This document shows, in pieces, positions 4,410 through 59,217 of a stretch of DNA of 64,000 nucleotides. Below the pieces are notes generated by a model, which was not told the origin of the DNA, did not search any database, and worked only from the letters and a program-made list of their open reading frames with translations. The stretch comes from an uncultured Pseudomonadota bacterium (lineage in GTDB: Bacteria; Pseudomonadota; Alphaproteobacteria; RF32; CAG-239): NCBI GenBank assembly GCA_949295935.1, contig CASFMW010000002.1, positions 290 through 64,289 of the forward strand. Direction: 5' to 3'. Every line of letters starts with the position of its first letter. Position 1 is the stretch's first letter. Both the position numbers and the translations under genes were made by a program.

Positions 4410-5012
4410 ATGAATAATATTCGTCGCCTAAGAGAAAAAAAACACCTCACTGCCAAAGAGCTTGGCCAAGCAATCGGAAAATCACAACCCACCATCTGCA
4501 AATGGGAAAAAGCCCCATCATTGCGCTACGAACACGCAAAGCTAATTGCAGATTATTTTAAGGTTCCGGTCTATGAAGTCATCGGCGAAAAGCCGGAACA
4601 ATACCTTGAAGACATAAGACAAGACATGGTCTCTATTGACATCATAAATCTTCAAAAAGACAGCTCAAAAATTCTCGGCAGACAGCTCATGCCGGTCACA
4701 GTCTTAAAAGAATACACCAGCACTGCCCCCGAAAGCATTAAAATCATAAAAATAGACAGCGAAGCCATGAAACCCACCATCAGCCCCAATGATATGGTTT
4801 GGGTTGACACCGCCTGCAAATCACCTGACAGTGACGGCATTTACCTGTTGAATATCGGTGATAAACCTACACTTAAAAGAATACAAATAAAACCTCTGGA
4901 AAATTCTGCCATCATAAAATCTGACAACCCGCAATACGGCAGTTTTGACTATGATGACTACCGTCGCATAAAAGTATTAGGCAAAGTTATTTTTCATATT
5001 CAAAAACTCTAA
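4410..5012 (+). CDS. XRE-family HTH / S24 (LexA/cI-like) peptidase-fold repressor
   Basis: N-terminal HTH_3-like 'IRRLREKKHLTAKELGQAIGKSQPTICKWEK'. The C-terminal S24 fold has 'SEAMKPTISPNDMVWVD' and '...LKRIQ'. Ala sits where the G-x-S-M nucleophile Ser is expected. Confidence 0.85.
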   Translation: MNNIRRLREKKHLTAKELGQAIGKSQPTICKWEKAPSLRYEHAKLIADYFKVPVYEVIGEKPEQYLEDIRQDMVSIDIINLQKDSSKILGRQLMPVTVLKEYTSTAPESIKIIKIDSEAMKPTISPNDMVWVDTACKSPDSDGIYLLNIGDKPTLKRIQIKPLENSAIIKSDNPQYGSFDYDDYRRIKVLGKVIFHIQKL

Positions 5013-13005: not shown

Positions 13006-13938
13006 ATGAAACAGGAAATAAAATATAATACCGACAATGAGTTAAAAGCCAAGATTGAGAAATGGCTTGAAGAATTGAGCTCAGAACGCCGCTATTCACC
13101 GCACACGATAGATGCCTACGCGCGCGATTTGTCATTCTTTACCGAATTTTTTGAAACACCGCTAAGCTTAAAAAAACTAAGCCGACTTGATGTCAAAGAC
13201 TTCAGGGCTTATATCAGCCGTCGTGCGGCCAAACATTTAAGCAAAAGCTCTCTAGCGCGAGAAATCTCAACTCTAAGAAGTTTTTTTCGTTGGCTGGATA
13301 AAAATGATATTGTTAAAAACACCGCCATTGATGTGATTAACTCCCCAAGGCAAGACAAGATACTTCCGCGTTCATTAGATGTTTCACAAGCTTTTGAACT
13401 ATTGAATGAATCCCCCAACTTTTCAAAAAAGAGCTGGACAGGCCTCCGTGACCGCGCCATTTTCACATTACTTTACGGCTGCGGCCTACGAATATCAGAA
13501 GCCCTGTCCCTAAATTTTGGTGATATTGAGCCCAACACTCAGCTTTTAAGAATTACCGGTAAAGGCAATAAAACAAGATTAGTTCCGATACTTTCTGAGG
13601 TTATTGACACTATCACCGCCTATATCAACGAATGCCCTTATAATTTTAACCAAGGAGATGCTTTATTTTTGGGCACGCGCGGCGAACGTCTAAGCCCACG
13701 CATAATACAGCGCCAAATGCAAAAGATAAGAGCTTATCTCGGTTTACCGGATAATTTGACGCCCCATGCCCTAAGGCATTCCTTTGCCACACATTTACTG
13801 GCCGAAGGCACTGACCTGCGCTCAATTCAAGAGCTTTTGGGCCATGCCTCATTAACCACCACCCAGCGCTATACAGATGTTGAAATTGAAACCTTACAAA
13901 AAGAATATCGCAAAGCACGGCTTCTTGATGACAAATAA
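13006..13938 (+). CDS. Tyrosine recombinase, XerC/XerD family
   Basis: 310 aa. It has an N-terminal SAM-like core-binding domain, the catalytic region 'HALRHSFATHLLAEGTDLRSIQELLGHASLTTTQRYTDV', and the R..HxxR..Y signature. I cannot separate XerC from XerD by eye. Confidence 0.9.
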   Translation: MKQEIKYNTDNELKAKIEKWLEELSSERRYSPHTIDAYARDLSFFTEFFETPLSLKKLSRLDVKDFRAYISRRAAKHLSKSSLAREISTLRSFFRWLDKNDIVKNTAIDVINSPRQDKILPRSLDVSQAFELLNESPNFSKKSWTGLRDRAIFTLLYGCGLRISEALSLNFGDIEPNTQLLRITGKGNKTRLVPILSEVIDTITAYINECPYNFNQGDALFLGTRGERLSPRIIQRQMQKIRAYLGLPDNLTPHALRHSFATHLLAEGTDLRSIQELLGHASLTTTQRYTDVEIETLQKEYRKARLLDDK

Positions 13939-20944: not shown

Positions 20945-21021
20945 TGGGGCGAACGATCGGGCTCGAACCGACGACAACCGGTACCACAAACCGGGGCTCT
21001 ACCAACTGAGCTACGTTCGCC
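20945..21021 (-). tRNA. tRNA-His (anticodon GTG)
   Basis: 77 nt, folded by hand. G-1 lies opposite C73. Acceptor GCGAACG/CGTTCGC, D-stem GCTC/GAGC, anticodon stem CCGGT/ACCGG with loop TTGTGGT, T-arm GTCGG-TTCGAGC-CCGAT, and an encoded CCA. Confidence 0.93.
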
Positions 21022-23937: not shown

Positions 23938-25557
23938 ATGATAAACATTGTCAAAACCCAGCCTTATTCTGATCAAAAAATGGGCACCGGCGGCTTACGC
24001 AAAAAGACTAAAGTCATGATGCAGCCCAACTATTTTGAAAACTTTATCCAAAGTGTGTTCAACGCCATCGGCGGAGTAAAAGGCAAGACCTATGTTGTCG
24101 GCGGTGACGGCAGATTTTTCAATGCCGAAGCGATCCAAAGATTCATTAAAATGGCAGCCGCTAACGGCGTAAAAAAATTAATCATCGGGCAAAACGGCTT
24201 CATGTCAACACCGGCAGGCTCTAATGTTATGCTAAAAAATCACACCGACGGTGGCTTCATCTTTTCGGCTTCGCATAACCCCGGAGGCGAAAACGGCGAC
24301 TTTGGTGTAAAATATGCCAACGAAACAGCCGGACAAGTCCCTACCGCTGTCACAGATAGAATATTCGAAGAATCAAAAAAAATCAGCGAATATAAAATCT
24401 GCGATTCTAAAGACATTGATTTAAAAAATTTAGGATTGCAAAAACTTGAAGACATGGAAATTGAAGTAATAGACCCTGTTGCAGATTATGTTGAAATGAT
24501 GCAAAGGATTTTTGACTTTGATGCTCTAAAACAATTATTCAAAAGCGGCTTTACGATTCGCTTTGATGCAATGAACGCCGTTACCGGCCCCTATGCGATT
24601 CGTATTTTTGAAGAAATTTTAGGCGCAGCCAAAGGCTCGGTTATCCGCGCCACCCCACTTCCTGATTTTGGTGGCCTTCACCCTGACCCGAACCTAATTT
24701 ATGCCAAAGATTTGGTTGACTTTATGTATTCGGATAAAGCCACCGATTTTGCCGCTGCAAATGATGGCGACGGCGACCGTAATATGATATTGGGACGCAA
24801 GTTTTTTGTAACACCGAGCGATAGTCTGGCAATTTTAACCGATAATTGCAAACTCATCCCTGCTTACAAAAACGGAATATACGGCGTTGCAAAGTCAGCA
24901 GCCACCTCAACGGCTGTCTGCCGCGTTGCCGAAAAGAACAACATTCCTTATTATGTTGTTCCGACCGGTTGGAAATACTTTGTAAACCTGATGGATTCTA
25001 ACAGAATTACACTTTGCGGAGAAGAAAGCTTCGGTACCGGCTCCTCCCACATCCGAGAAAAAGACGGCATTTGGGCGATCCTGTTTTGGTTAAGCATCAT
25101 TGCCAAGACAGGAAAAACCGTTGAAGAGATCACACGTGAAAACTGGAAAAAATACGGCCGCAGCTATTATATGCGTTTTGACTACGAAGGACTTGACACC
25201 ACAGTTGCCGACAAGTTAATGGCCGACTTAGAAGCCAAACTTCCGTCACTCAAAGGCAAAAAATTTGGCAGTTACGAAGTCAAAGAAGCCGCACCTTTCG
25301 TATACAATGATCCAGTTGATGGCTCCGTCACCAAAAACGGTTTGGTAATTGATTTCACCAATCAGGCCAAAATCACTTACCGCCTATCAGGCACTGGCTC
25401 CAGCGGCGCAACCTTACGCGTTTATCTGGAACTGCCAGAATACAACGACTTTGACCAAGATACATTAGAGACATTGCAGCCTCTTCTGAAAATTGCGTCA
25501 GACGTTGCAGAAATTCAACAAAGAACAGGTAAGACCAAAGCGGATGTTAATACCTAA
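23938..25557 (+). CDS. pgm: Phosphoglucomutase (alpha-D-glucose phosphate-specific)
   Basis: 539 aa. Active-site loop 'FSASHNPGG', Mg site 'NDGDGDRN' and sugar-binding 'CGEESFG'. Confidence 0.93.
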   Translation: MINIVKTQPYSDQKMGTGGLRKKTKVMMQPNYFENFIQSVFNAIGGVKGKTYVVGGDGRFFNAEAIQRFIKMAAANGVKKLIIGQNGFMSTPAGSNVMLKNHTDGGFIFSASHNPGGENGDFGVKYANETAGQVPTAVTDRIFEESKKISEYKICDSKDIDLKNLGLQKLEDMEIEVIDPVADYVEMMQRIFDFDALKQLFKSGFTIRFDAMNAVTGPYAIRIFEEILGAAKGSVIRATPLPDFGGLHPDPNLIYAKDLVDFMYSDKATDFAAANDGDGDRNMILGRKFFVTPSDSLAILTDNCKLIPAYKNGIYGVAKSAATSTAVCRVAEKNNIPYYVVPTGWKYFVNLMDSNRITLCGEESFGTGSSHIREKDGIWAILFWLSIIAKTGKTVEEITRENWKKYGRSYYMRFDYEGLDTTVADKLMADLEAKLPSLKGKKFGSYEVKEAAPFVYNDPVDGSVTKNGLVIDFTNQAKITYRLSGTGSSGATLRVYLELPEYNDFDQDTLETLQPLLKIASDVAEIQQRTGKTKADVNT

Positions 25558-26659
25558 AATACTATATGGCGTTTTACTTGGGCTGTTCATTTCCGTACCG
25601 GCAAGTCAATCACTTGCCGGACTATACGGTTTTACGGAAGGAACGCCACTCTCGCCTGACGAAAAAATCTTAAATATGCCCTCCCCTCCGGCAAATATTC
25701 CAAATTATCGCAGTTTAATGCGTGATAATATCGAAATGCTGATTGGCTATGCTCAGGCCAGAAAACCAGATTTTCAAATCATTCTTCACGAAGGCGTCGA
25801 CATTTTATATAAAGGCTTGTGGGAATACCATTTAAGCGGTTATCAAAACGCCCGCGGAAATGGTGACGATAAATCCGATCCCAGCTTTTTAAGCGGTAAA
25901 GATTTAACACTGCCCAAAGAATATCAATTAGACAGCCATTTGGACAACCCGTTTTTCAAAAAAATAAATGCCATAATTTTTAACGACTTATATTGCTCTC
26001 CGCGAAAATTAGATAAAGACCTATTAAAAACAAACATACGCCTCGGAGCAATCAGCCACTGCCCTTCTATAGAGGCTTATGACCAAGCCGCCGCTCTTTC
26101 AGTAAAAGAAAATCTGTTATTTTACGGATTTTTGAATTTATCAACTGCCTTTGGCTATATTGCCAACCAACCGATAATCAACGAAAATGCACGCAATATT
26201 TTCAACGTAAAAGATGCATCGAATATATCTTTCTTATTAGATAACAGACGTTACAAAAACAGAGACGAACTTATCAGTGACGTACGCAAATCAAACTATG
26301 ATATTGTTGTTATTGATCCGATTTTTCATGACGGCAGCATTTTCACCCAAGAAGAAGTTGATCTAATGAAATTCAAAAAAAGCGGTCCTAAACGACTCAT
26401 AATTGCCCGACAAAACATTACCGAAGCCTTCACCAAAGACTACTATTGGCAAGATGACTGGAACAAACATCTTCCCTCTTGGATAAAAAGAGCTTCTTTA
26501 AGCAGCAAAAACGGCTTCATCACCGAATACTGGCAAGAAGAATGGAAAAAGATTATATCACAATATTTCCGTGGTATTGTATTAAGCCGTTATGATGGTG
26601 TTTTCCTAACCGGCATAAACAACCACCAATATTTTGAATCATTAACCCCGCTGGAGTAA
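25544..26659 (+). CDS. Secreted TIM-barrel glycoside-hydrolase-like protein (GH114 / TM1410 / COG2342-like)
   Basis: The ORF is open from 25493, but the Met at 25544 gives a signal peptide (MLIPKILYGVLLGLFISVPASQSLA). 'IIARQNITEAFTKDYYWQDDW' and 'YDGVFLTG' resemble GH114-like motifs (siGeaE..r.YW / GfDGvfLD). Match made by eye only. Confidence 0.5.
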   Translation: MLIPKILYGVLLGLFISVPASQSLAGLYGFTEGTPLSPDEKILNMPSPPANIPNYRSLMRDNIEMLIGYAQARKPDFQIILHEGVDILYKGLWEYHLSGYQNARGNGDDKSDPSFLSGKDLTLPKEYQLDSHLDNPFFKKINAIIFNDLYCSPRKLDKDLLKTNIRLGAISHCPSIEAYDQAAALSVKENLLFYGFLNLSTAFGYIANQPIINENARNIFNVKDASNISFLLDNRRYKNRDELISDVRKSNYDIVVIDPIFHDGSIFTQEEVDLMKFKKSGPKRLIIARQNITEAFTKDYYWQDDWNKHLPSWIKRASLSSKNGFITEYWQEEWKKIISQYFRGIVLSRYDGVFLTGINNHQYFESLTPLE

Positions 26660-26940: not shown

Positions 26941-27696
26941 ATGCAGCAGCTTTTACACATAGAAGTCTATAAATACCTGCTGATATTTCTGCGTATCGGC
27001 TCGGCTATTATGCTCATGCCGGGCTTTATGACGACCTATATCAACATGAGATATCGCCTAAGCATTGCTCTAGGGATAAGTGTTGTGCTGTATCCATTTT
27101 TAGCTGATATTCTGCCGCCGCCGCCAACAGATTACCTTGACCATGTCAAAATGTATATGCTTGAAATCACTTACGGTGTTTTCTTTGGGTTAATGATGCA
27201 AGTCACTTTCACCGCCTTGAGTCTGGCAGGCAATTTTGCCGGTACGGCAATCGGCTTTTCAAACGCTCAACTCTTTGACCCCAGCACACAAACCCAATCC
27301 ATCGTACTGGAAAGCTTTTTCAGCATAACCGCACTGACAGTAATATTTGTAACAGACTTGCACCACACAATGCTGTCAGCCGTTATATCCAGTTATGAAC
27401 TGTTTCCGGCCGGCTCATCTCTACCCGACGGAGACATGGCCAACTACATGGGCCAAGCGCTTGGAGAAAGCTTTGCCACGGGCTTCCGCTTAGCCTCTCC
27501 ATTTATTGCTTTCACAATAATATTTTACTCCGGCATGGGATTAATATCACGATTAATGCCACAACTAAACATTTTCTTTTTATCATTGCCCTTGCAATTA
27601 TATTTAGGCATCGGCTTGTTGTTTATCACCCTTCCGGCCATAATATTCTGGTTTGTGGAATATTATGAGCGAAGCCTTATGGCCTTTCAAAATTAG
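26941..27696 (+). CDS. fliR: Flagellar type III export apparatus protein FliR
   Basis: 251 aa, polytopic, between fliQ and flhB. 'FLRIGSAIMLMPGF' is a typical FliR N-terminus. Confidence 0.9.
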   Translation: MQQLLHIEVYKYLLIFLRIGSAIMLMPGFMTTYINMRYRLSIALGISVVLYPFLADILPPPPTDYLDHVKMYMLEITYGVFFGLMMQVTFTALSLAGNFAGTAIGFSNAQLFDPSTQTQSIVLESFFSITALTVIFVTDLHHTMLSAVISSYELFPAGSSLPDGDMANYMGQALGESFATGFRLASPFIAFTIIFYSGMGLISRLMPQLNIFFLSLPLQLYLGIGLLFITLPAIIFWFVEYYERSLMAFQN

Positions 27697-27705
27697 GAGC
27701 GTTTC

Positions 27706-28782
27706 ATGGTAGCCGAAGACGAAGATGAAGCCTCCAAGACGGAAGAACCGTCGGAACGAAAAATCAGCAAAGCCAAAGAAGAAGGCGACATTGCCATTTC
27801 GCAAGACGCCAAAAGCTTTATCATGCTAACCGGTATGCTGTTTGTCGTATGGCTAATAATCCCGCTCATGGGCAAAATGTTCTATGACTACTTTGGCAAA
27901 TTCATCTTGGTACCGGAAACCATTCCTACCGATTCGCGCCATTTAAGACTGCTTTTTTTCAACTGTTTTGTAGATTTAATAAAGATATTGGGAATACCTC
28001 TGGCAATTTTTATGGTTTTAGGCATAGCCGCCAGCTTGATGCAAACCGGTTTCATTTATGCTCCAAAAAAATTAATGCCTGATTGGAATAGACTAAACAT
28101 TTTTGCAGCTTTGACTAAATTCATTAATATGAAAAAGATTGTCGAAAGCTTAAAAGGTATTATTAAAATAACCATCATCAGCTGGATAGCTGTTGTTGTC
28201 TTAACACCTTATTTGAGCAAAAGCGAACTCATGCCTGACATGGCAACGCAAAATATCTTAAAATTAATTCACCATATTGTAATATTACTGATATTCACAG
28301 TCGTCATCGCCGTATTGGTTATCGCAGTCGCCGACTATGCCTACCAAAAATACACTCATTTGAAAAAACTGCGCATGACCAAACAAGAGGTCAAAGAAGA
28401 ATACAAACAAACCGAAGGTGATCCTTTGGTAAAATCGCGTATCAGACAAATACGTAACGAAAGAGCCCGCCGCCGCATGATGGACAATGTTCCCAAAGCA
28501 GATGTTGTCATCGTCAACCCGACGCATTATGCCGTTGCTCTTGAATATAAAATGGAAAAAATGGATGCACCTGTTGTTGTTGCCAAAGGTCTTGACAACA
28601 TAGCATTAAGAATTCGTGAGATTGCAGAAGAACACGATATTCCGATTGTCGAAAATCCACCTTTAGCAAGAGCACTTTTCGCATCTGTTGAATTAGATCA
28701 CACCATACCGGAAGAACATTTTAAAGCCGTAGCCGAGGTAATAGGATATGTTATGCAGCTTAAAAACCAAACGACCCGATAA
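27706..28782 (+). CDS. flhB: Flagellar type III export switch protein FlhB
   Basis: 358 aa. 'KTEEPSERKISKAKEEGDIAISQD', 'MTKQEVKEEYKQTEGDPLVKSRIRQ', and the autocleavage site 'NPTHYAVAL'. Confidence 0.93.
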   Translation: MVAEDEDEASKTEEPSERKISKAKEEGDIAISQDAKSFIMLTGMLFVVWLIIPLMGKMFYDYFGKFILVPETIPTDSRHLRLLFFNCFVDLIKILGIPLAIFMVLGIAASLMQTGFIYAPKKLMPDWNRLNIFAALTKFINMKKIVESLKGIIKITIISWIAVVVLTPYLSKSELMPDMATQNILKLIHHIVILLIFTVVIAVLVIAVADYAYQKYTHLKKLRMTKQEVKEEYKQTEGDPLVKSRIRQIRNERARRRMMDNVPKADVVIVNPTHYAVALEYKMEKMDAPVVVAKGLDNIALRIREIAEEHDIPIVENPPLARALFASVELDHTIPEEHFKAVAEVIGYVMQLKNQTTR

Positions 28783-55704: not shown

Positions 55705-56865
55705 ATGACCAATAAACCTGCAAAACCGATTATGCTTTTTGACTGCAAAACATCTCAAAATGTTTTTGGCAGAGAAAACTTGATGAAAGCCTTTGAAAAA
55801 ATTTTGGATCACGGCGGCTATTGCCAAGGACCGGAAACCAAAGAGCTCGATGAAAAATTGGCTGCTTACTGCGGCGCTAAATATTGCTCAACCTGCGGCT
55901 CAGGAACAGATGCCTTGACTTTGGCTTTAATGGCTTGGAACGTAAAACCTGGAGACGCCGTATTTGTATCTTCTTTCACCTTTGTTGCCTCAGCTGAAGC
56001 TCCGGTTTTGCTCGGTGCTACACCGATATTCGTTGACTCTGATCCCAATACCTACAACATGGATCCGGAAGATTTGCAACGTGCAATTGATGAAGTCAAA
56101 AAAGAAGGCAAGCTGAACTTAAAAGCTGTTGTTGCTGTTGATATTTTCGGTTCTCCTTGCGACTATGACAAGATTATCAAAATCGCTCATGACAACGGCA
56201 TGAAAGTTTTGGCCGATTCTTGCCAATCATTTGGTTCTGTTTACAAAGGCAAACACGCTGGTAACATTGCTGATATGACCGCCACATCTTTCTACCCGAC
56301 CAAACCGCTCGGCGGCTATGGCGACGGTGGAGCAACCTTCTCTAATACGAACGAAGAAAACGAGCTAATAAAATCTTGCCGCGTTCACGGTATGAGCCCA
56401 GAAGACCACTATGACAATGTTCGTTTGGGCATGACTGGCCGTATGAACACTTTCCAGGCCGCAGTTTTGTTGCAAAAATTAACTGTTTTTGATCAAGAAT
56501 TAAAAGATCGTTTCAGAGTAGCTTCTCGCTATGACAACGAACTCGATTCTTATTTTGGCAAACAAAAGATTTTGGATGGTTGCAAATCTGCTTATGCACT
56601 TTACACCATCACCTGCCCTGACAGAGATGAGTTAATGGCTTATCTGAAAGACAACGGCATTCCTTGCGGTGCATATTATCCTCGTCCGGTCAACACTCAA
56701 ACCGCTTATGCAAAATGGAACACCCGCAGCGTTCCTGTTTGTGAAAAATTATCCAAGACCGCATTGTCTATCCCGATGACTCCGTATTTGGATAACGAAG
56801 ATCTTGACTACATCATCAAGACCATGAACGAGTTTGCCGCTCAGAAAAAAGCCAAAGCCGCATAA
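55705..56865 (+). CDS. DegT/DnrJ/EryC1/StrS-family PLP-dependent sugar aminotransferase
   Basis: 386 aa. 'GPETKELDEKLAAYCGAKYCSTCGSGTDALTLAL' and 'SFYPTKPLGGYGDGGA' (PLP lysine region). Confidence 0.9.
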   Translation: MTNKPAKPIMLFDCKTSQNVFGRENLMKAFEKILDHGGYCQGPETKELDEKLAAYCGAKYCSTCGSGTDALTLALMAWNVKPGDAVFVSSFTFVASAEAPVLLGATPIFVDSDPNTYNMDPEDLQRAIDEVKKEGKLNLKAVVAVDIFGSPCDYDKIIKIAHDNGMKVLADSCQSFGSVYKGKHAGNIADMTATSFYPTKPLGGYGDGGATFSNTNEENELIKSCRVHGMSPEDHYDNVRLGMTGRMNTFQAAVLLQKLTVFDQELKDRFRVASRYDNELDSYFGKQKILDGCKSAYALYTITCPDRDELMAYLKDNGIPCGAYYPRPVNTQTAYAKWNTRSVPVCEKLSKTALSIPMTPYLDNEDLDYIIKTMNEFAAQKKAKAA

Positions 56866-56885: not shown

Positions 56886-56923
56886 AAATCCCTCTTTGAA
56901 AAATTTCAAAGAGGGATTTTTTT
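56886..56923 (+). terminator. Rho-independent terminator of the aminotransferase gene
   Basis: aaatccctctttgaa (56886-56900) / ttcaaagagggattt (56905-56919), followed by a T-run. Confidence 0.85.
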
Positions 56924-56956
56924 ACCCGTTTACAGCAACATTATTCCCAGAAAAAT

Positions 56957-57099
56957 TTTGCTAAGGTAAGATAAAAATTAGTTTCAGCCCCAAAAACACC
57001 TATCTAAGCAACGCGACTTCTTGTCCCAATCAGAAAACAGCCAAGCGATGCCCGCGGGGGCCCCCCGCTCCTCAATATGGTACTAATTTCTGGGGTAAT
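56957..57099 (+). repeat. Cassette leader repeat, copy 1 (99-nt core 57001-57099 identical to 58345-58443)
   Basis: Direct comparison gives 99/99 identity for the core, which contains the GC palindrome gcgggggccccccgc. The 44 nt upstream are roughly three-quarters identical to 58302-58344. Confidence 0.9.
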
Positions 57100-57643
57100 T
57101 GAGAATAGAGAGAACCAAACTGAACAGAGTTATGGGTTAGGACAAAGTGATAATAACCAAGTATCTTTTTTACAACAGCGTTACGGATTGGGAAATGAAA
57201 ATCAGCAACAAGCCAAAGCCAATAACATCCCCAGATATTGGGATACGGCAGCTGATGGTGAAAAAGTTTGGAACTACGTTCAGCAGCAAGAAGGTAATGT
57301 CAGTCCTCAGAGCCAAAATATGTTTAGTTATGGAGCGTCTGGCATAATTGGCGGGGTTAAAACTCTTTATAATTATTTAACAATGCAGCCAAAATCTTAT
57401 ACAGACAAATATAAGCACGCCGTAATTAATTGTAGTGCATCACAATCTGGTGAAGGTGGTTACGATTTAGCAAATGCTTTTTCTAATTTTAAAGAAGATA
57501 GAGATATTTCATCAGGTGGGAATACTATTGACAGTAGTCATGCAGACCAGTATGCTAACAAAATAGGTAGATTACTTGGGACAAAATATCCTAATGGAGA
57601 ATGTGATGAGCTTGTACAAAGATATATTAACAAAAGGTGGTAA
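57077..57643 (+). CDS. Serum amyloid A (SAA)-like domain protein; possibly the frame-shifted continuation of repeat copy 1
   Basis: 188 aa. 'DKYKHAVINCSASQSGEGGYDLANAFSNFKEDRD..GGNTIDSSHADQYANKIGRLLG' aligns by eye with vertebrate SAA '[54 protein letters not shown]' (recalled from memory). The ATG lies inside the repeat and has no SD. Confidence 0.5.
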   Translation: MVLISGVIENRENQTEQSYGLGQSDNNQVSFLQQRYGLGNENQQQAKANNIPRYWDTAADGEKVWNYVQQQEGNVSPQSQNMFSYGASGIIGGVKTLYNYLTMQPKSYTDKYKHAVINCSASQSGEGGYDLANAFSNFKEDRDISSGGNTIDSSHADQYANKIGRLLGTKYPNGECDELVQRYINKRW

Positions 57644-57647
57644 CGCA

Positions 57648-57809
57648 TTGAAAAAAGCCATAATTTTAATTGGTATAATATTTGCGATTTTTTTTCTTTA
57701 CTTAATAGTTTCTTTTTTGAAATATGAGTATATTGACAAGCCTAAACTTATCAACCAATGTGTGCAAACAGGAAACTCTTTAGAAATTTGTAAAGGAAGA
57801 TTTGATTAG
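57648..57809 (+). CDS. Small single-pass membrane protein
   Basis: TTG start 7 nt after the SD aaggtgg (57634-57640) and 5 nt after the upstream stop. 53 aa: LKKAIILIGIIFAIFFLYLIVSFLKYEYIDKPKLINQCVQTGNSLEICKGRFD. The ORF track extends it to 57576. Confidence 0.4.
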   Translation: MKKAIILIGIIFAIFFLYLIVSFLKYEYIDKPKLINQCVQTGNSLEICKGRFD

Positions 57810-57826
57810 TAGTATGTCAATTGAAT

Positions 57827-57857
57827 AGAGGGCTGTATTTCAGCCCTTCTGAATTTT
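57827..57857 (+). terminator. Hairpin terminator
   Basis: agagggctg (57827-57835) / cagcccttct (57841-57850), followed by gaatttt. Confidence 0.5.
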
Positions 57858-58148
57858 ATGACTAGAAAAAATATTCATAGCTTAGAAAAGAATAGTCAGA
57901 ATCAAAATCAAACCTTGAGACAGCAAACAAATAACAATCATATATCTAATAAAAAAGGATTTATTGACAAATTTAATGAATTAGAATATATGACAGATAT
58001 TCCACATTCAATATCGACTGGCAATAAATTTATAGATAAAAATATTGCAAAATATGGAGCTAAAGCCCTTGGAGTATTAGCGAAAAGTCCTCAAGCAAAA
58101 TTTGTTGTAAAATATGCTAATATAATCTCTGCGACTACTGGACTATGA
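57858..58148 (+). CDS. Hypothetical Q/N-rich small protein sharing a C-terminal motif with ORF 58303-58656
   Basis: 96 aa. 'MTDIPHSISTGNKFIDKNIAK' compared with 'MSNISNPVKTGNNAVDFALGK' in the next gene gives 8 identities plus conservative changes over 21 residues. Confidence 0.45.
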   Translation: MTRKNIHSLEKNSQNQNQTLRQQTNNNHISNKKGFIDKFNELEYMTDIPHSISTGNKFIDKNIAKYGAKALGVLAKSPQAKFVVKYANIISATTGL

Positions 58149-58184
58149 CTTTAATTTTGTAATTTTTTCATAGAGGTGCAGTCA

Positions 58185-58325
58185 ATGGATATGTATAATA
58201 AATTTCAGTCGCCGCTTGGTTATCAGACCGGTGAAGGTCAGATTGACAGCTATGGCGTCGATCACAGCGGCTTTTCTACCCGTGATAAGTTAGAATATCA
58301 ATTTGCAAGACAAGATAAAATTTAA
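58185..58325 (+). CDS. Short ORF with a strong SD; likely the N-terminal part of a gene continued in the +1 frame (58303-58656)
   Basis: The SD gaggtg lies 7 nt upstream of the ATG. 46 aa: MDMYNKFQSPLGYQTGEGQIDSYGVDHSGFSTRDKLEYQFARQDKI. It overlaps the next ORF by 23 nt in a different frame. Confidence 0.35.
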   Translation: MDMYNKFQSPLGYQTGEGQIDSYGVDHSGFSTRDKLEYQFARQDKI

Positions 58326-58443
58326 TTCAAGTTCCGAAAACACATATCTAAGCAACGCGACTTCTTGTCCCAATCAGAAAACAGCCAAGCGATGCCCGCG
58401 GGGGCCCCCCGCTCCTCAATATGGTACTAATTTCTGGGGTAAT
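58302..58443 (+). repeat. Cassette leader repeat, copy 2
   Basis: 58345-58443 is 100% identical to 57001-57099. Here it is in frame with ORF 58303-58656 and encodes YLSNATSCPNQKTAKRCPRGPPAPQYGTNFWGN. Confidence 0.9.
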
Positions 58444-58656
58444 GGAAATTGCACTCCTTTTGGTATTGCCAAAAGAGCTTTTGAAGTGTATAAAATGTCT
58501 AATATCTCAAATCCTGTTAAAACCGGAAATAATGCAGTTGATTTTGCATTAGGAAAAATTCCAGCCATAAAAAAATGGAATACTGGTTTTAATATAGGTA
58601 AATTGGGATTTGTAGCACAACAAACATATAATGATACTTGTAAGCACAAAAATTAA
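58303..58656 (+). CDS. Hypothetical small Cys-containing protein carrying the conserved leader
   Basis: 117-aa ORF from a TTG with no SD. The N-terminal 47 aa are encoded by repeat copy 2. The C-terminal part is paralogous to ORF 57858-58148. Confidence 0.45.
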   Translation: MQDKIKFNSSSENTYLSNATSCPNQKTAKRCPRGPPAPQYGTNFWGNGNCTPFGIAKRAFEVYKMSNISNPVKTGNNAVDFALGKIPAIKKWNTGFNIGKLGFVAQQTYNDTCKHKN

Positions 58657-58735
58657 TAACCAGATTTTTTTGCAAAAGCTATTATAAAGGAGATAATATT
58701 TATGAAAACGTTCGCTTGGCATGTTTTAATTTTAG

Positions 58736-59125
58736 GTGGATTTTACTTTATTATCTCCTTGCTCTCTTTTTTTTCCGGAAAATTCCATTTTAAATACCAT
58801 AAACATAGCGGCATTTATTATTTTTGCCTTAATGTTTTTCATATTATGCTTTAAGAAAAAATATAATTTCATCAGCAGATTTAAAAACAAATTTACTAAA
58901 ACAAGTATTTATTTGGCCGCTCTCGGTATTGGTGAATATTTTAGTATTATATTCATCACTATTCCCGGAACAATTTATGGATACAAAATCGCTATGGCAC
59001 AGTATATCGGAGAGGAAATACCTTTAGCACCAATAAGCTATTTAAATAACATCTATTACATATATCTTATTATTTCATGCATTTCCCTTATCTGGGCAAC
59101 CTACAAAAGCTTTATAAAAAAATAG
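58736..59125 (+). CDS. Hypothetical polytopic membrane protein; the probable true start at ATG 58702 is separated by a T8 frameshift
   Basis: 129-aa ORF from a GTG, with about three TM segments. SD aaaggag (58686-58692) plus ATG 58702 open a 50-aa ORF in the neighbouring frame. A T8 run at 58767-58774 links the two frames. Confidence 0.45.
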   Translation: MDFTLLSPCSLFFPENSILNTINIAAFIIFALMFFILCFKKKYNFISRFKNKFTKTSIYLAALGIGEYFSIIFITIPGTIYGYKIAMAQYIGEEIPLAPISYLNNIYYIYLIISCISLIWATYKSFIKK

Positions 59126-59217
59126 ATTTTTATCATCATAAATATACGACGCCCCAACTTTCTAAACATCTTTATTGAATTTTGCGCCGGCAAATGCTCT
59201 GCCTATCTCAAGAAAAA

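Follow-up and report, generated by a model that had tools for sequence, protein, structure and literature searches.

Why should two otherwise different coding sequences of one bacterium share a perfectly identical, GC-rich tract of 99 nt? This question is raised by a 64,000-nt stretch of contig CASFMW010000002.1 (positions 290 to 64,289 of the forward strand; assembly GCA_949295935.1) from an uncultured alphaproteobacterium of the RF32 lineage, which we call the window and in which all coordinates below are given. We found that the two tracts are probably the homologous middles of two copies of a toxin-family constant region, termed N-dom here. The locus as a whole is best explained, with good confidence, as a decaying and recombining toxin/immunity island whose N-dom copies have been disrupted by a GC-rich block of 98 nt. 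The two tracts are:

57001 to 57099, plus strand: copy 1, of which 72 nt are the 3' part of the block and the remaining 27 nt are native coding sequence of N-dom (QYGTNFWGN)
58345 to 58443, plus strand: copy 2, an exact match to copy 1

The exact match, reported in an initial annotation of this DNA, cannot be extended by one base on either side. It lies within a wider repeat (56963–57102 against 58307–58446) of 92% identity, in which there are 10 mismatches in 137 aligned positions. All 10 fall within the first 38 positions (P ~1e-6), which indicates that the identical tract is a distinct block. The 44 nt upstream of the tract had been put at about 75% identity; the measured value is 68% (30/44), or 74% across the 38 nt that are homologous. 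Downstream, the copies diverge immediately, as had been noticed, to 13/60 identity, the level of chance. A 44-nt core of the repeat occurs twice in the window at no more than 3 mismatches, where shuffled sequences give an expectation of 0. The tract is also GC-rich, as first described: the 99-mer has 52.5% GC and its 66-nt core 63.6%, whereas the island has 33.6% and the window as a whole 41%. The palindrome gcgggggccccccgc proposed within it turned out to be a near-palindrome (G5C6), not a perfect one, and the stem proposed to enclose it is unused in the minimum-free-energy fold.

A search with the open reading frame (ORF) of copy 2 returned 5 proteins (proteins are given below as P numbers and loci from other assemblies as L numbers). 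One of them, P0002 (168 aa), has the layout MKMFNKFQSPLGYQ...EYQFARQNK-ENQLIQNYNNQGISDNY-PQYGPNFWGN-...NIENRENQTEYVG-NCTPFGIAKR.... From this layout it follows that the window ORFs 58176–58325 and 58303–58656 are two halves of one ancestral gene, that PQYGTNFWGN and IENRENQTE are native gene sequence, and that the GC-rich part occupies the place of 17 other codons in relatives. The small ORF 58176–58325 had gone unrecognised as the N-terminal half of the gene to which the copy 2 ORF belongs. The peptide encoded by copy 2, YLSNATSCPNQKTAKRCPRGPPA, had been read as one unit joined to a C-terminal domain; as a whole it is not a sequence of the family, and PQYGTNFWGN alone is native. A similar correction applies to the idea that the 99 nt form a conserved coding module, which holds for the last 27 nt only: the other 72 of the 99 nt belong to a replacement specific to this lineage that disrupts the gene.

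The nature of the replacement is revealed by the near-identical intact allele of L007. Compared with it, 98 nt in the window replace 55 nt, with the flanks almost unchanged. The 55 nt run from the third base of K46 through P63 (residues ENKLIQNYNNQGITKNY; 17 conserved codons), and no similarity between them and the block was detected (local alignment P 0.34 forward, 0.90 reverse). The net gain of 43 nt places the downstream part of N-dom in the +1 frame. The block occurs with two different 5' ends (subtypes A and B), and in both the N-dom frame stops, with TAA or TAG, at the same codon. The downstream frame of the block contains a TGA in all copies but the window's two, which have CGA. The +1 shift and the stop codons together mean that a fusion of N-dom to the toxin module behind it could not be made by normal translation. 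In copy 1, as the initial annotation had it, the frame of the repeat has a TAA at 56962–56964, no ATG, GTG or TTG after it and a TGA at 57100–57102, and the long ORF at 57077–57643 is in the +1 frame relative to it.

The block appears to be confined to one lineage. Among the 110 N-dom copies in the loci that we fetched, the two halves of the region lie 51 nt apart in 88 cases and 45, 48 or 54 nt apart in a further 9; a spacing of 94 nt is found in this lineage only, and none of the 110 copies has an independent insertion at the same site in another lineage. A 26-mer from the block core occurs only 4 times in 185,579 species-representative genomes, in 2 metagenome-assembled genomes (MAGs) and always in N-dom genes. 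Exact-match scans, which diverged copies would escape, did not find the block in JGI metagenomes, IMG/VR, phages or plasmids. There is no further copy elsewhere in the window, and no donor in the window or any fetched locus. Of 5.8 billion proteins searched, only P0001 of a sister strain is homologous to the peptide read through the block.

N-dom itself defines a sizeable family. With P0002 as query we found at least 174 proteins of about 120–290 aa, which have residues 1 to ~95 in common and C-termini that diverge after NIEN. A profile search against 1.84 billion representatives (E<=1e-3) extended this to 324 clusters at 50% identity, in which proteins of 60–740 aa have N-dom as their N-terminal part. 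Metagenome contigs, human gut included, hold 156 such loci, and the sources name their hosts only as uncultured Alphaproteobacteria. Relatives were absent from viral contigs, and a phage origin of the family was therefore rejected. N-dom has no sequence match in Pfam, NCBIfam or the PDB. The C-terminal modules, which we call tips, are of several kinds: among 28 members, Pfam matched SAA (serum amyloid A) in 5, Tlde1 (Tlde1_dom/YkuD) in 3 and GH108 (Glyco_hydro_108 with PG_binding) in 2, and an IQUB-like domain was also among the matches. Many tips match nothing in Pfam or NCBIfam, including the 70-aa, cysteine-flanked tip of copy 2 (the small tip).

The ORF behind copy 1 had been called SAA-like, and its tip indeed matches Pfam SAA (PF00277) at E 5.5e-10, with 40 bits against a gathering cut-off of 30.8. 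Its intact counterpart is P0015 (281 aa), whose tip is 99% identical. In the AlphaFold (AF2) model of P0015, N-dom is of low confidence, with one helix (residues 32–55) followed by a disordered linker rich in glycine and asparagine; the tip is modelled as helical, and its top Foldseek matches in the PDB are SAA1 and SAA3 (probability 1.0, TM-score 0.66–0.72). The window tip also carries ANKIGR, an instance of the sNxxGR motif that lies in helix 4 of prok-SAA (PMC12419801). Prok-SAA has been described as a tip of polymorphic toxins, with membrane proteins or lipoproteins as the immunity proteins (PMC12419801).

In intact members the order is N-dom, the G/N-rich linker, one of many unrelated tips, and then a gene for a small membrane or secreted protein specific to that tip. 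The pairing is strict. SAA is followed by TM67 (the 67-aa membrane protein of the window), Tlde1a by TM120, Tlde1b by TM118, the small tip by TM140 (the 140-aa membrane protein of the window), the QNQTL tip by TM131 and the tip of L004 by a 199-aa protein. The downstream genes are candidate immunity genes and N-dom is a putative trafficking signal. The architecture as a whole is very likely that of polymorphic-toxin cassettes. This agrees with the initial suggestion of polymorphic toxins with orphan C-terminal cassettes, as the same N-terminal region stands on many tips, the pairs of tip and downstream gene are fixed, and orphan tips lie behind full genes. The described architecture, a constant 5' module with variable 3' modules, one promoter-less 5'-truncated copy and small membrane-protein genes downstream, was likewise found.

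More distant members show further arrangements. L012 (7719–12891) has four full-length N-dom toxin genes arrayed among housekeeping genes, with no secretion genes nearby; two are SAA genes, each followed by a 141-aa gene, and two are GH108 genes. In L031 (2586–3193), from a distant lineage, a linker deletion has broken an N-dom/SAA gene, which adjoins an intact paralogue with a 133-aa cysteine-rich downstream gene. Since this break arose in an unrelated lineage, decay seems to be common in the family.

In the window, the island spans ~56920–59217, is low in GC and has toxin/immunity-type content. It lies between a degT-like gene on one side and a DUF502 gene, then recJ, on the other. Its features and borders are:

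55705 to 56865, plus strand: degT-like aminotransferase gene, the conserved left border (Pfam DegT_DnrJ_EryC1, E 7.8e-96)
56886 to 56919, strand not assigned: terminator-like hairpin 3' of degT, a 15-bp stem and then a T run
56963 to 56974, plus strand: cassette 1, the remaining 12 nt of the N-dom 5' half, from alignment to the full-length arrangement of L006
56975 to 57072, plus strand: GC-rich 98-nt block, copy 1 (5' subtype A), replacing 55 nt of canonical N-dom coding sequence
57077 to 57643, plus strand: SAA ORF (188 aa), a linker remnant (IENRENQTE) and a prok-SAA (Lipocone) tip
57606 to 57809, plus strand: 67-aa single-pass membrane protein, immunity candidate for the SAA tip, which it adjoins in relatives
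57858 to 58118, plus strand: orphan toxin-tip fragment (QNQTLRQQTNNNHISNKKGF...), its 3' end cut off by cassette 2
58108 to 58184, plus strand: conserved upstream region of full-length N-dom genes, near-identical before the start codon in L004, L006, L007 and L008
58185 to 58325, plus strand: cassette 2, N-dom 5' half (46 aa), 93% identical to P0015 residues 1–45; its TAA end lies inside the block
58319 to 58416, plus strand: GC-rich 98-nt block, copy 2 (5' subtype B), 90/98 identity to copy 1
58444 to 58656, plus strand: 70-aa Cys-flanked C-terminal tip (CTPFGIAKR...TCKHKN), 94% identical to the P0002 tip
58702 to 59125, plus strand: 140-aa multi-pass membrane protein, immunity candidate for the small tip, 3' of which it lies in L002, L003, L005 and L006
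59218 to 59970, minus strand: DUF502 gene, the conserved right border (Pfam DUF502, E 7.4e-33), syntenic in L001, L005, L006 and L008

We regard it as likely that the island of the window strain consists of three remnants: a 5'-deleted N-dom with an SAA tip, a truncated orphan tip, and an N-dom gene that has its own upstream region and the small tip. In cassette 1, a deletion of ~250 nt took the upstream region and codons 1 to about 43 of the N-dom gene, and a further 47 nt are missing from the linker (compared with L001 and L005), which brings the ATG at 57077 into frame with the tip. The 67-aa protein behind it is 98–100% identical in the window, L007 and L008. The orphan fragment corresponds to residues 1–73 of a 102-aa tip that is complete in L008, P0012, P0007, P0020 and P0021. 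Before cassette 2, the conserved region of ~77 nt is probably a shared promoter and ribosome-binding site. The N-dom 5' half proper ends at 58318; intact genes continue reading where the window ORF 58185–58325 stops, and an in-frame 78-nt linker deletion (compared with L001 and L002) joins the 70-aa tip directly to WGN. The 8 differences between the two blocks are all in the first 26 nt. The 140-aa membrane gene is split into two ORFs by a run of T8 at 58767–58774, which is T7 in L002, L005 and L006; the extra base could be real decay or a homopolymer error of the assembly. Damage in block-bearing cassettes thus includes the 47-nt and 78-nt linker deletions, the T8 frameshift in an immunity candidate, an N-dom frameshift in L004 and an internal tip deletion in L006b.

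Outside the island, the window contains genes usual for an alphaproteobacterial chromosome (lon, ATP synthase genes, priA, mipZ, fliR/flhB, bamA, lpxD, topA). We saw no secretion apparatus beside the island, and no linked secretion system in the window or around distant N-dom members. A tRNA or attachment site at the island was considered and rejected, the sole tRNA of the window being distant (20945–21020). Elsewhere, a 388-aa ORF without a Pfam match at E<=1e-5 (25493–26659) immediately precedes fliR and flhB (26941–28782), two genes of flagellar export. A LexA-like repressor (HTH_3 with Peptidase_S24) and a XerC/D-type tyrosine recombinase are encoded at 4410–5012 and 13006–13938; there is nothing to link either of them to the island.

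Seven other assemblies have the same site with different content. The degT-like gene flanks the island in L001, L005, L006, L007 and L008 as well. L006, L015 and L016 are one MAG contig, and L017 represents the same array start in another sample. The contents between degT and DUF502 are:

L008 and L009: intact N-dom with SAA tip, TM67, orphan QNQTL tip, TM131
L007: intact N-dom with Tlde1a tip, TM120, orphan SAA tip, TM67
L006: block-bearing N-dom with Tlde1a tip, TM120, orphan Tlde1b tip, TM118, block-bearing N-dom with a truncated small tip, TM140
L005: 5'-deleted, block-bearing copy with Tlde1a tip, TM120, orphan small tip, TM140
L001: 5'-deleted, block-bearing copy with the small tip

Orphan tip modules were found in the window (56963–57809 and 57858–58118), L005 (5487–6260), L006 (3156–4257), L007 (2833–3604) and L008 (5183–5974). 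They retain ~80 nt of linker and, in related strains, sit behind full-length genes. The junction of the ~250-nt 5' deletion is identical in the window, L001 and L005, and is followed there by SAA, the small tip and Tlde1, respectively. One truncation junction before three different tips indicates that tips have been swapped by recombination in the constant region. Moreover, the two 5' subtypes of the block occur with two types of native 3' flank in all 4 of 4 combinations. The recombinant junctions that had been suggested as a check on this locus therefore exist in related strains. The two copies in L006 share an exact match of 292 nt. Recurrent exchange inside the constant region accounts for a 99-nt perfect tract between otherwise different cassettes, and the analogy with gene conversion drawn at the outset holds in the sense of concerted evolution between paralogous copies, with mosaic subtypes and the 292-nt tract as its marks.

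A second N-dom locus lies beside murI. In L004 (2136–3312) and L014 (4317–5493) it encodes a 195-aa tip without a Pfam match and then the 199-aa cysteine-rich protein, which has an N-terminal hydrophobic segment. The two loci differ in block subtype and have the same tip. The N-dom 5' half of L004 has a 1-nt frameshift that is not in L014. In L001 (1556–1579 and 1683–1720), the small tip contains a 24-nt tandem duplication (GFNIGKLGFGFNIGKLGF), and most of the 140-aa membrane gene is lost.

These observations suggest the following course of events. The degT–DUF502 island is probably a hot spot at which homologous recombination in the constant region and the linker stacks tip and immunity modules, displaces them and exchanges them. 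The perfect identity would then mark a recent gene-conversion or recombination tract between a 5'-deleted SAA cassette and a small-tip cassette. The tract ends on its 3' side where homology ends, because the copies carry different linker deletions (47 nt and 78 nt); its 5' end lies inside the block, where the two subtypes meet. The 98-nt replacement in N-dom would have arisen in this lineage only, and the recombination that exchanges the modules would also have carried it with them and spread it to every paralogue. The lineage would thereafter have been left with disarmed toxins, or with tips whose expression begins at internal starts, and most of the immunity candidates have persisted; in either case the toxins would be uncoupled from the presumed trafficking region. 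The block is most likely an inactivating lesion spread by gene conversion.

Several observations weigh against the lesion. Conservation is higher in the 66-nt core of the block than in the adjoining coding sequence, and the core is present in every N-dom copy seen of this lineage, in at least 5 independent assemblies and at two chromosomal loci; a functional element could give such near-invariance as readily as recent homogenisation. The block minus 1 nt would be an in-frame replacement of 31 codons. Three secondary changes, namely the 47-nt deletion, the TGA to CGA change of the window and the lost G of L001, each open an ORF that crosses into the tip, and these could be compensatory. The two different linker deletions begin within 0–3 nt of one position, after GGGGTAAT (57097–57102; 58441–58446), a coincidence that is unexplained. 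In addition, all of the compared sequences are metagenome assemblies. Our preference for a lesion over a functional element is only a slight one. The block might be a selected safety catch, which would uncouple the trafficking region from the tip barring rare recoding or bypass or a recombination event that restores the gene, or it might be a recombination hot spot that drives tip swaps. Either reading accounts for a nearly invariant core in every copy, at two loci and in several strains; we nevertheless consider this pair of explanations quite unlikely.

Other explanations treat the block as an element that acts at the level of translation or RNA. Controlled, low synthesis of the toxin could result from a +1 frameshift at the conserved stop (AAA AUU UAA / AAA AAU UAG) or from ribosomal bypass, together with read-through of the TGA. 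The position of the stop codon common to both 5' subtypes, the +1 phase of the downstream part in every copy that has a 5' half, the GC hairpin 3' of the TGA and the high conservation of the core speak for such recoding or attenuation. However, a conserved slippery motif is lacking: the stop is preceded by ATT, AAT or ACT. A bypass product would lack 17 residues, family-invariant positions among them, and a frameshift product would carry 31 unrelated ones. The hairpin is not kept in L001 or L006b, where no compensated change is seen, and the fold is no more stable than that of shuffled sequence. The genetic code is standard, with long housekeeping ORFs uninterrupted by TGA, other lineages have no insertion at the site, and N-dom of L004 has its additional frameshift. 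This makes functional recoding very unlikely. Selenocysteine or another recoding of TGA was rejected, as TGA is a stop in this genome and the hairpin is too near to it and not conserved. A switch by phase variation, in which the G/C run (G5C6, G5CTC4 or G4CTC4) would move the ATG of GATGCCC in and out of the tip frame, is suggested by L001, where the loss of one G gives an ATG-initiated ORF (P0001) across the tip. The runs are only 4–6 nt, short for slipped-strand switching, about 10 copies include 1 length variant, and the product would lack the 5' half of N-dom; we hold such a switch to be highly improbable. The initial annotation had offered a conserved structured RNA leader as its alternative, and a riboswitch or small RNA before two different genes is a related idea. 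The repeat does lie 5' of two ORFs and contains a GC hairpin, and a weak promoter-like site (56929–56956) precedes copy 1. In contrast, fold z-scores are ~0.2 on both strands (+0.19 and +0.16), and Rfam returned nothing for the repeat, either at the gathering score or at E<=5, the weak Rfam matches of the region being confined to the hairpin at 56886–56919. Relatives have ordinary coding sequence of a single gene at this place, and variants break the hairpin without compensatory changes. The RNA leader is thus largely refuted and retains almost no probability.

The origin of the block as a small mobile insertion in N-dom, whether MITE-like (miniature inverted-repeat transposable element), similar to the Rickettsia palindromic elements and GC clusters, or the remnant of an insertion sequence, is unlikely, and it is the strongest of the alternatives. 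It would account for GC-rich, foreign sequence with a near-palindrome in an AT-rich gene and for the clean boundaries against intact alleles, and insertions of this kind have a precedent among alphaproteobacterial genes in the Rickettsia palindromic elements. The 55 nt that were replaced do not fit a simple insertion, though, and neither terminal inverted repeats nor a target duplication were seen by eye. The rarity of the 26-mer, its restriction to N-dom genes and the lack of a match in the metagenome, viral, phage and plasmid scans or at another place in the window also speak against it. Dispersed copies in unrelated contexts, which a MITE or the end of an insertion sequence would show, were not found in these scans. 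An assembly artefact from chimeric or collapsed repeats deserves mention, since repeats are error-prone in MAG contigs and the T8 run is possibly a homopolymer error. It is extremely improbable, as both the block and the junction of the 5' deletion are seen again in independent assemblies of different samples (L001, L004/L006, L005, L014 and L017) and the flanking modules match intact alleles elsewhere.

Orphan cassettes of a C-terminal tip with its immunity gene are known from the polymorphic toxin systems CdiA-CT/CdiI, Rhs-CT and Neisseria MafB-CT/MafI (Zhang et al. 2012 as cited in PMC12419801). Like these, the N-dom family combines a constant N-terminus with highly variable tips and a tip-specific gene directly 3'. 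Its 5'-truncated orphan tips behind a full gene retain a stretch of constant region or linker, and tips are swapped from strain to strain at one site. Unlike these, N-dom proteins are very small (about 120–420 aa); the ~95-aa constant region is largely a helix and disordered sequence, lacks a recognisable secretion marker (PAAR, LXG, VENN, RHS), was not found linked to secretion genes, and is broken in every copy seen in the window lineage. The SAA match, SAA fold and ANKIGR of the tip at 57077–57643 are those of prok-SAA in the Lipocone superfamily (Burroughs et al., eLife 2025, PMC12419801). As in other Lipocone toxins, a small membrane protein is encoded beside the tip; with its one transmembrane segment and two cysteines, this 67-aa candidate is not obviously any of the immunity types listed there. 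The window copy differs from prok-SAA toxins in lacking the N-terminal region and in its 47-nt linker deletion.

The island can also be compared with the pilE/pilS silent cassettes of Neisseria, with which it has in common promoter-less partial copies, short identical tracts between these and an expression-type copy, and mosaic alleles. We saw no evidence here of a dedicated initiation element or of programmed high-frequency conversion; the units exchanged are toxin tips and immunity genes, not variants of one antigen, and the expression-type copy of the window is itself disrupted. Small GC-rich or palindromic insertions in coding genes of AT-rich genomes are known as Rickettsia palindromic elements and as the GC clusters or byps of yeast mitochondria. 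The block resembles them in being short, GC-rich, near-palindromic and foreign to the AT-rich alphaproteobacterial coding sequence in which it lies. In contrast to them, it is found in one gene family only, is out of frame, replaces sequence, and gives no evidence of being translated or bypassed.

The cassette system belongs to a known type of architecture; its N-dom, for which Pfam and NCBIfam have no model, carries an odd lineage-specific disruption. These findings define a family of considerable size, made up of very small polymorphic toxins from Alphaproteobacteria that live in the gut of humans and other hosts; in it, a short N-terminal region presumably specifies the export route. The tips are predicted to target the cell envelope, and bacterial relatives of serum amyloid A are among them. 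In the degT–DUF502 island, module swaps, orphan cassettes and decay form a clean series that arose naturally. The presence of the block in every copy of one lineage suggests a population that has been disarmed of its toxins and has kept its immunity genes; if the block is instead functional, it would represent a new way of gating toxin expression.

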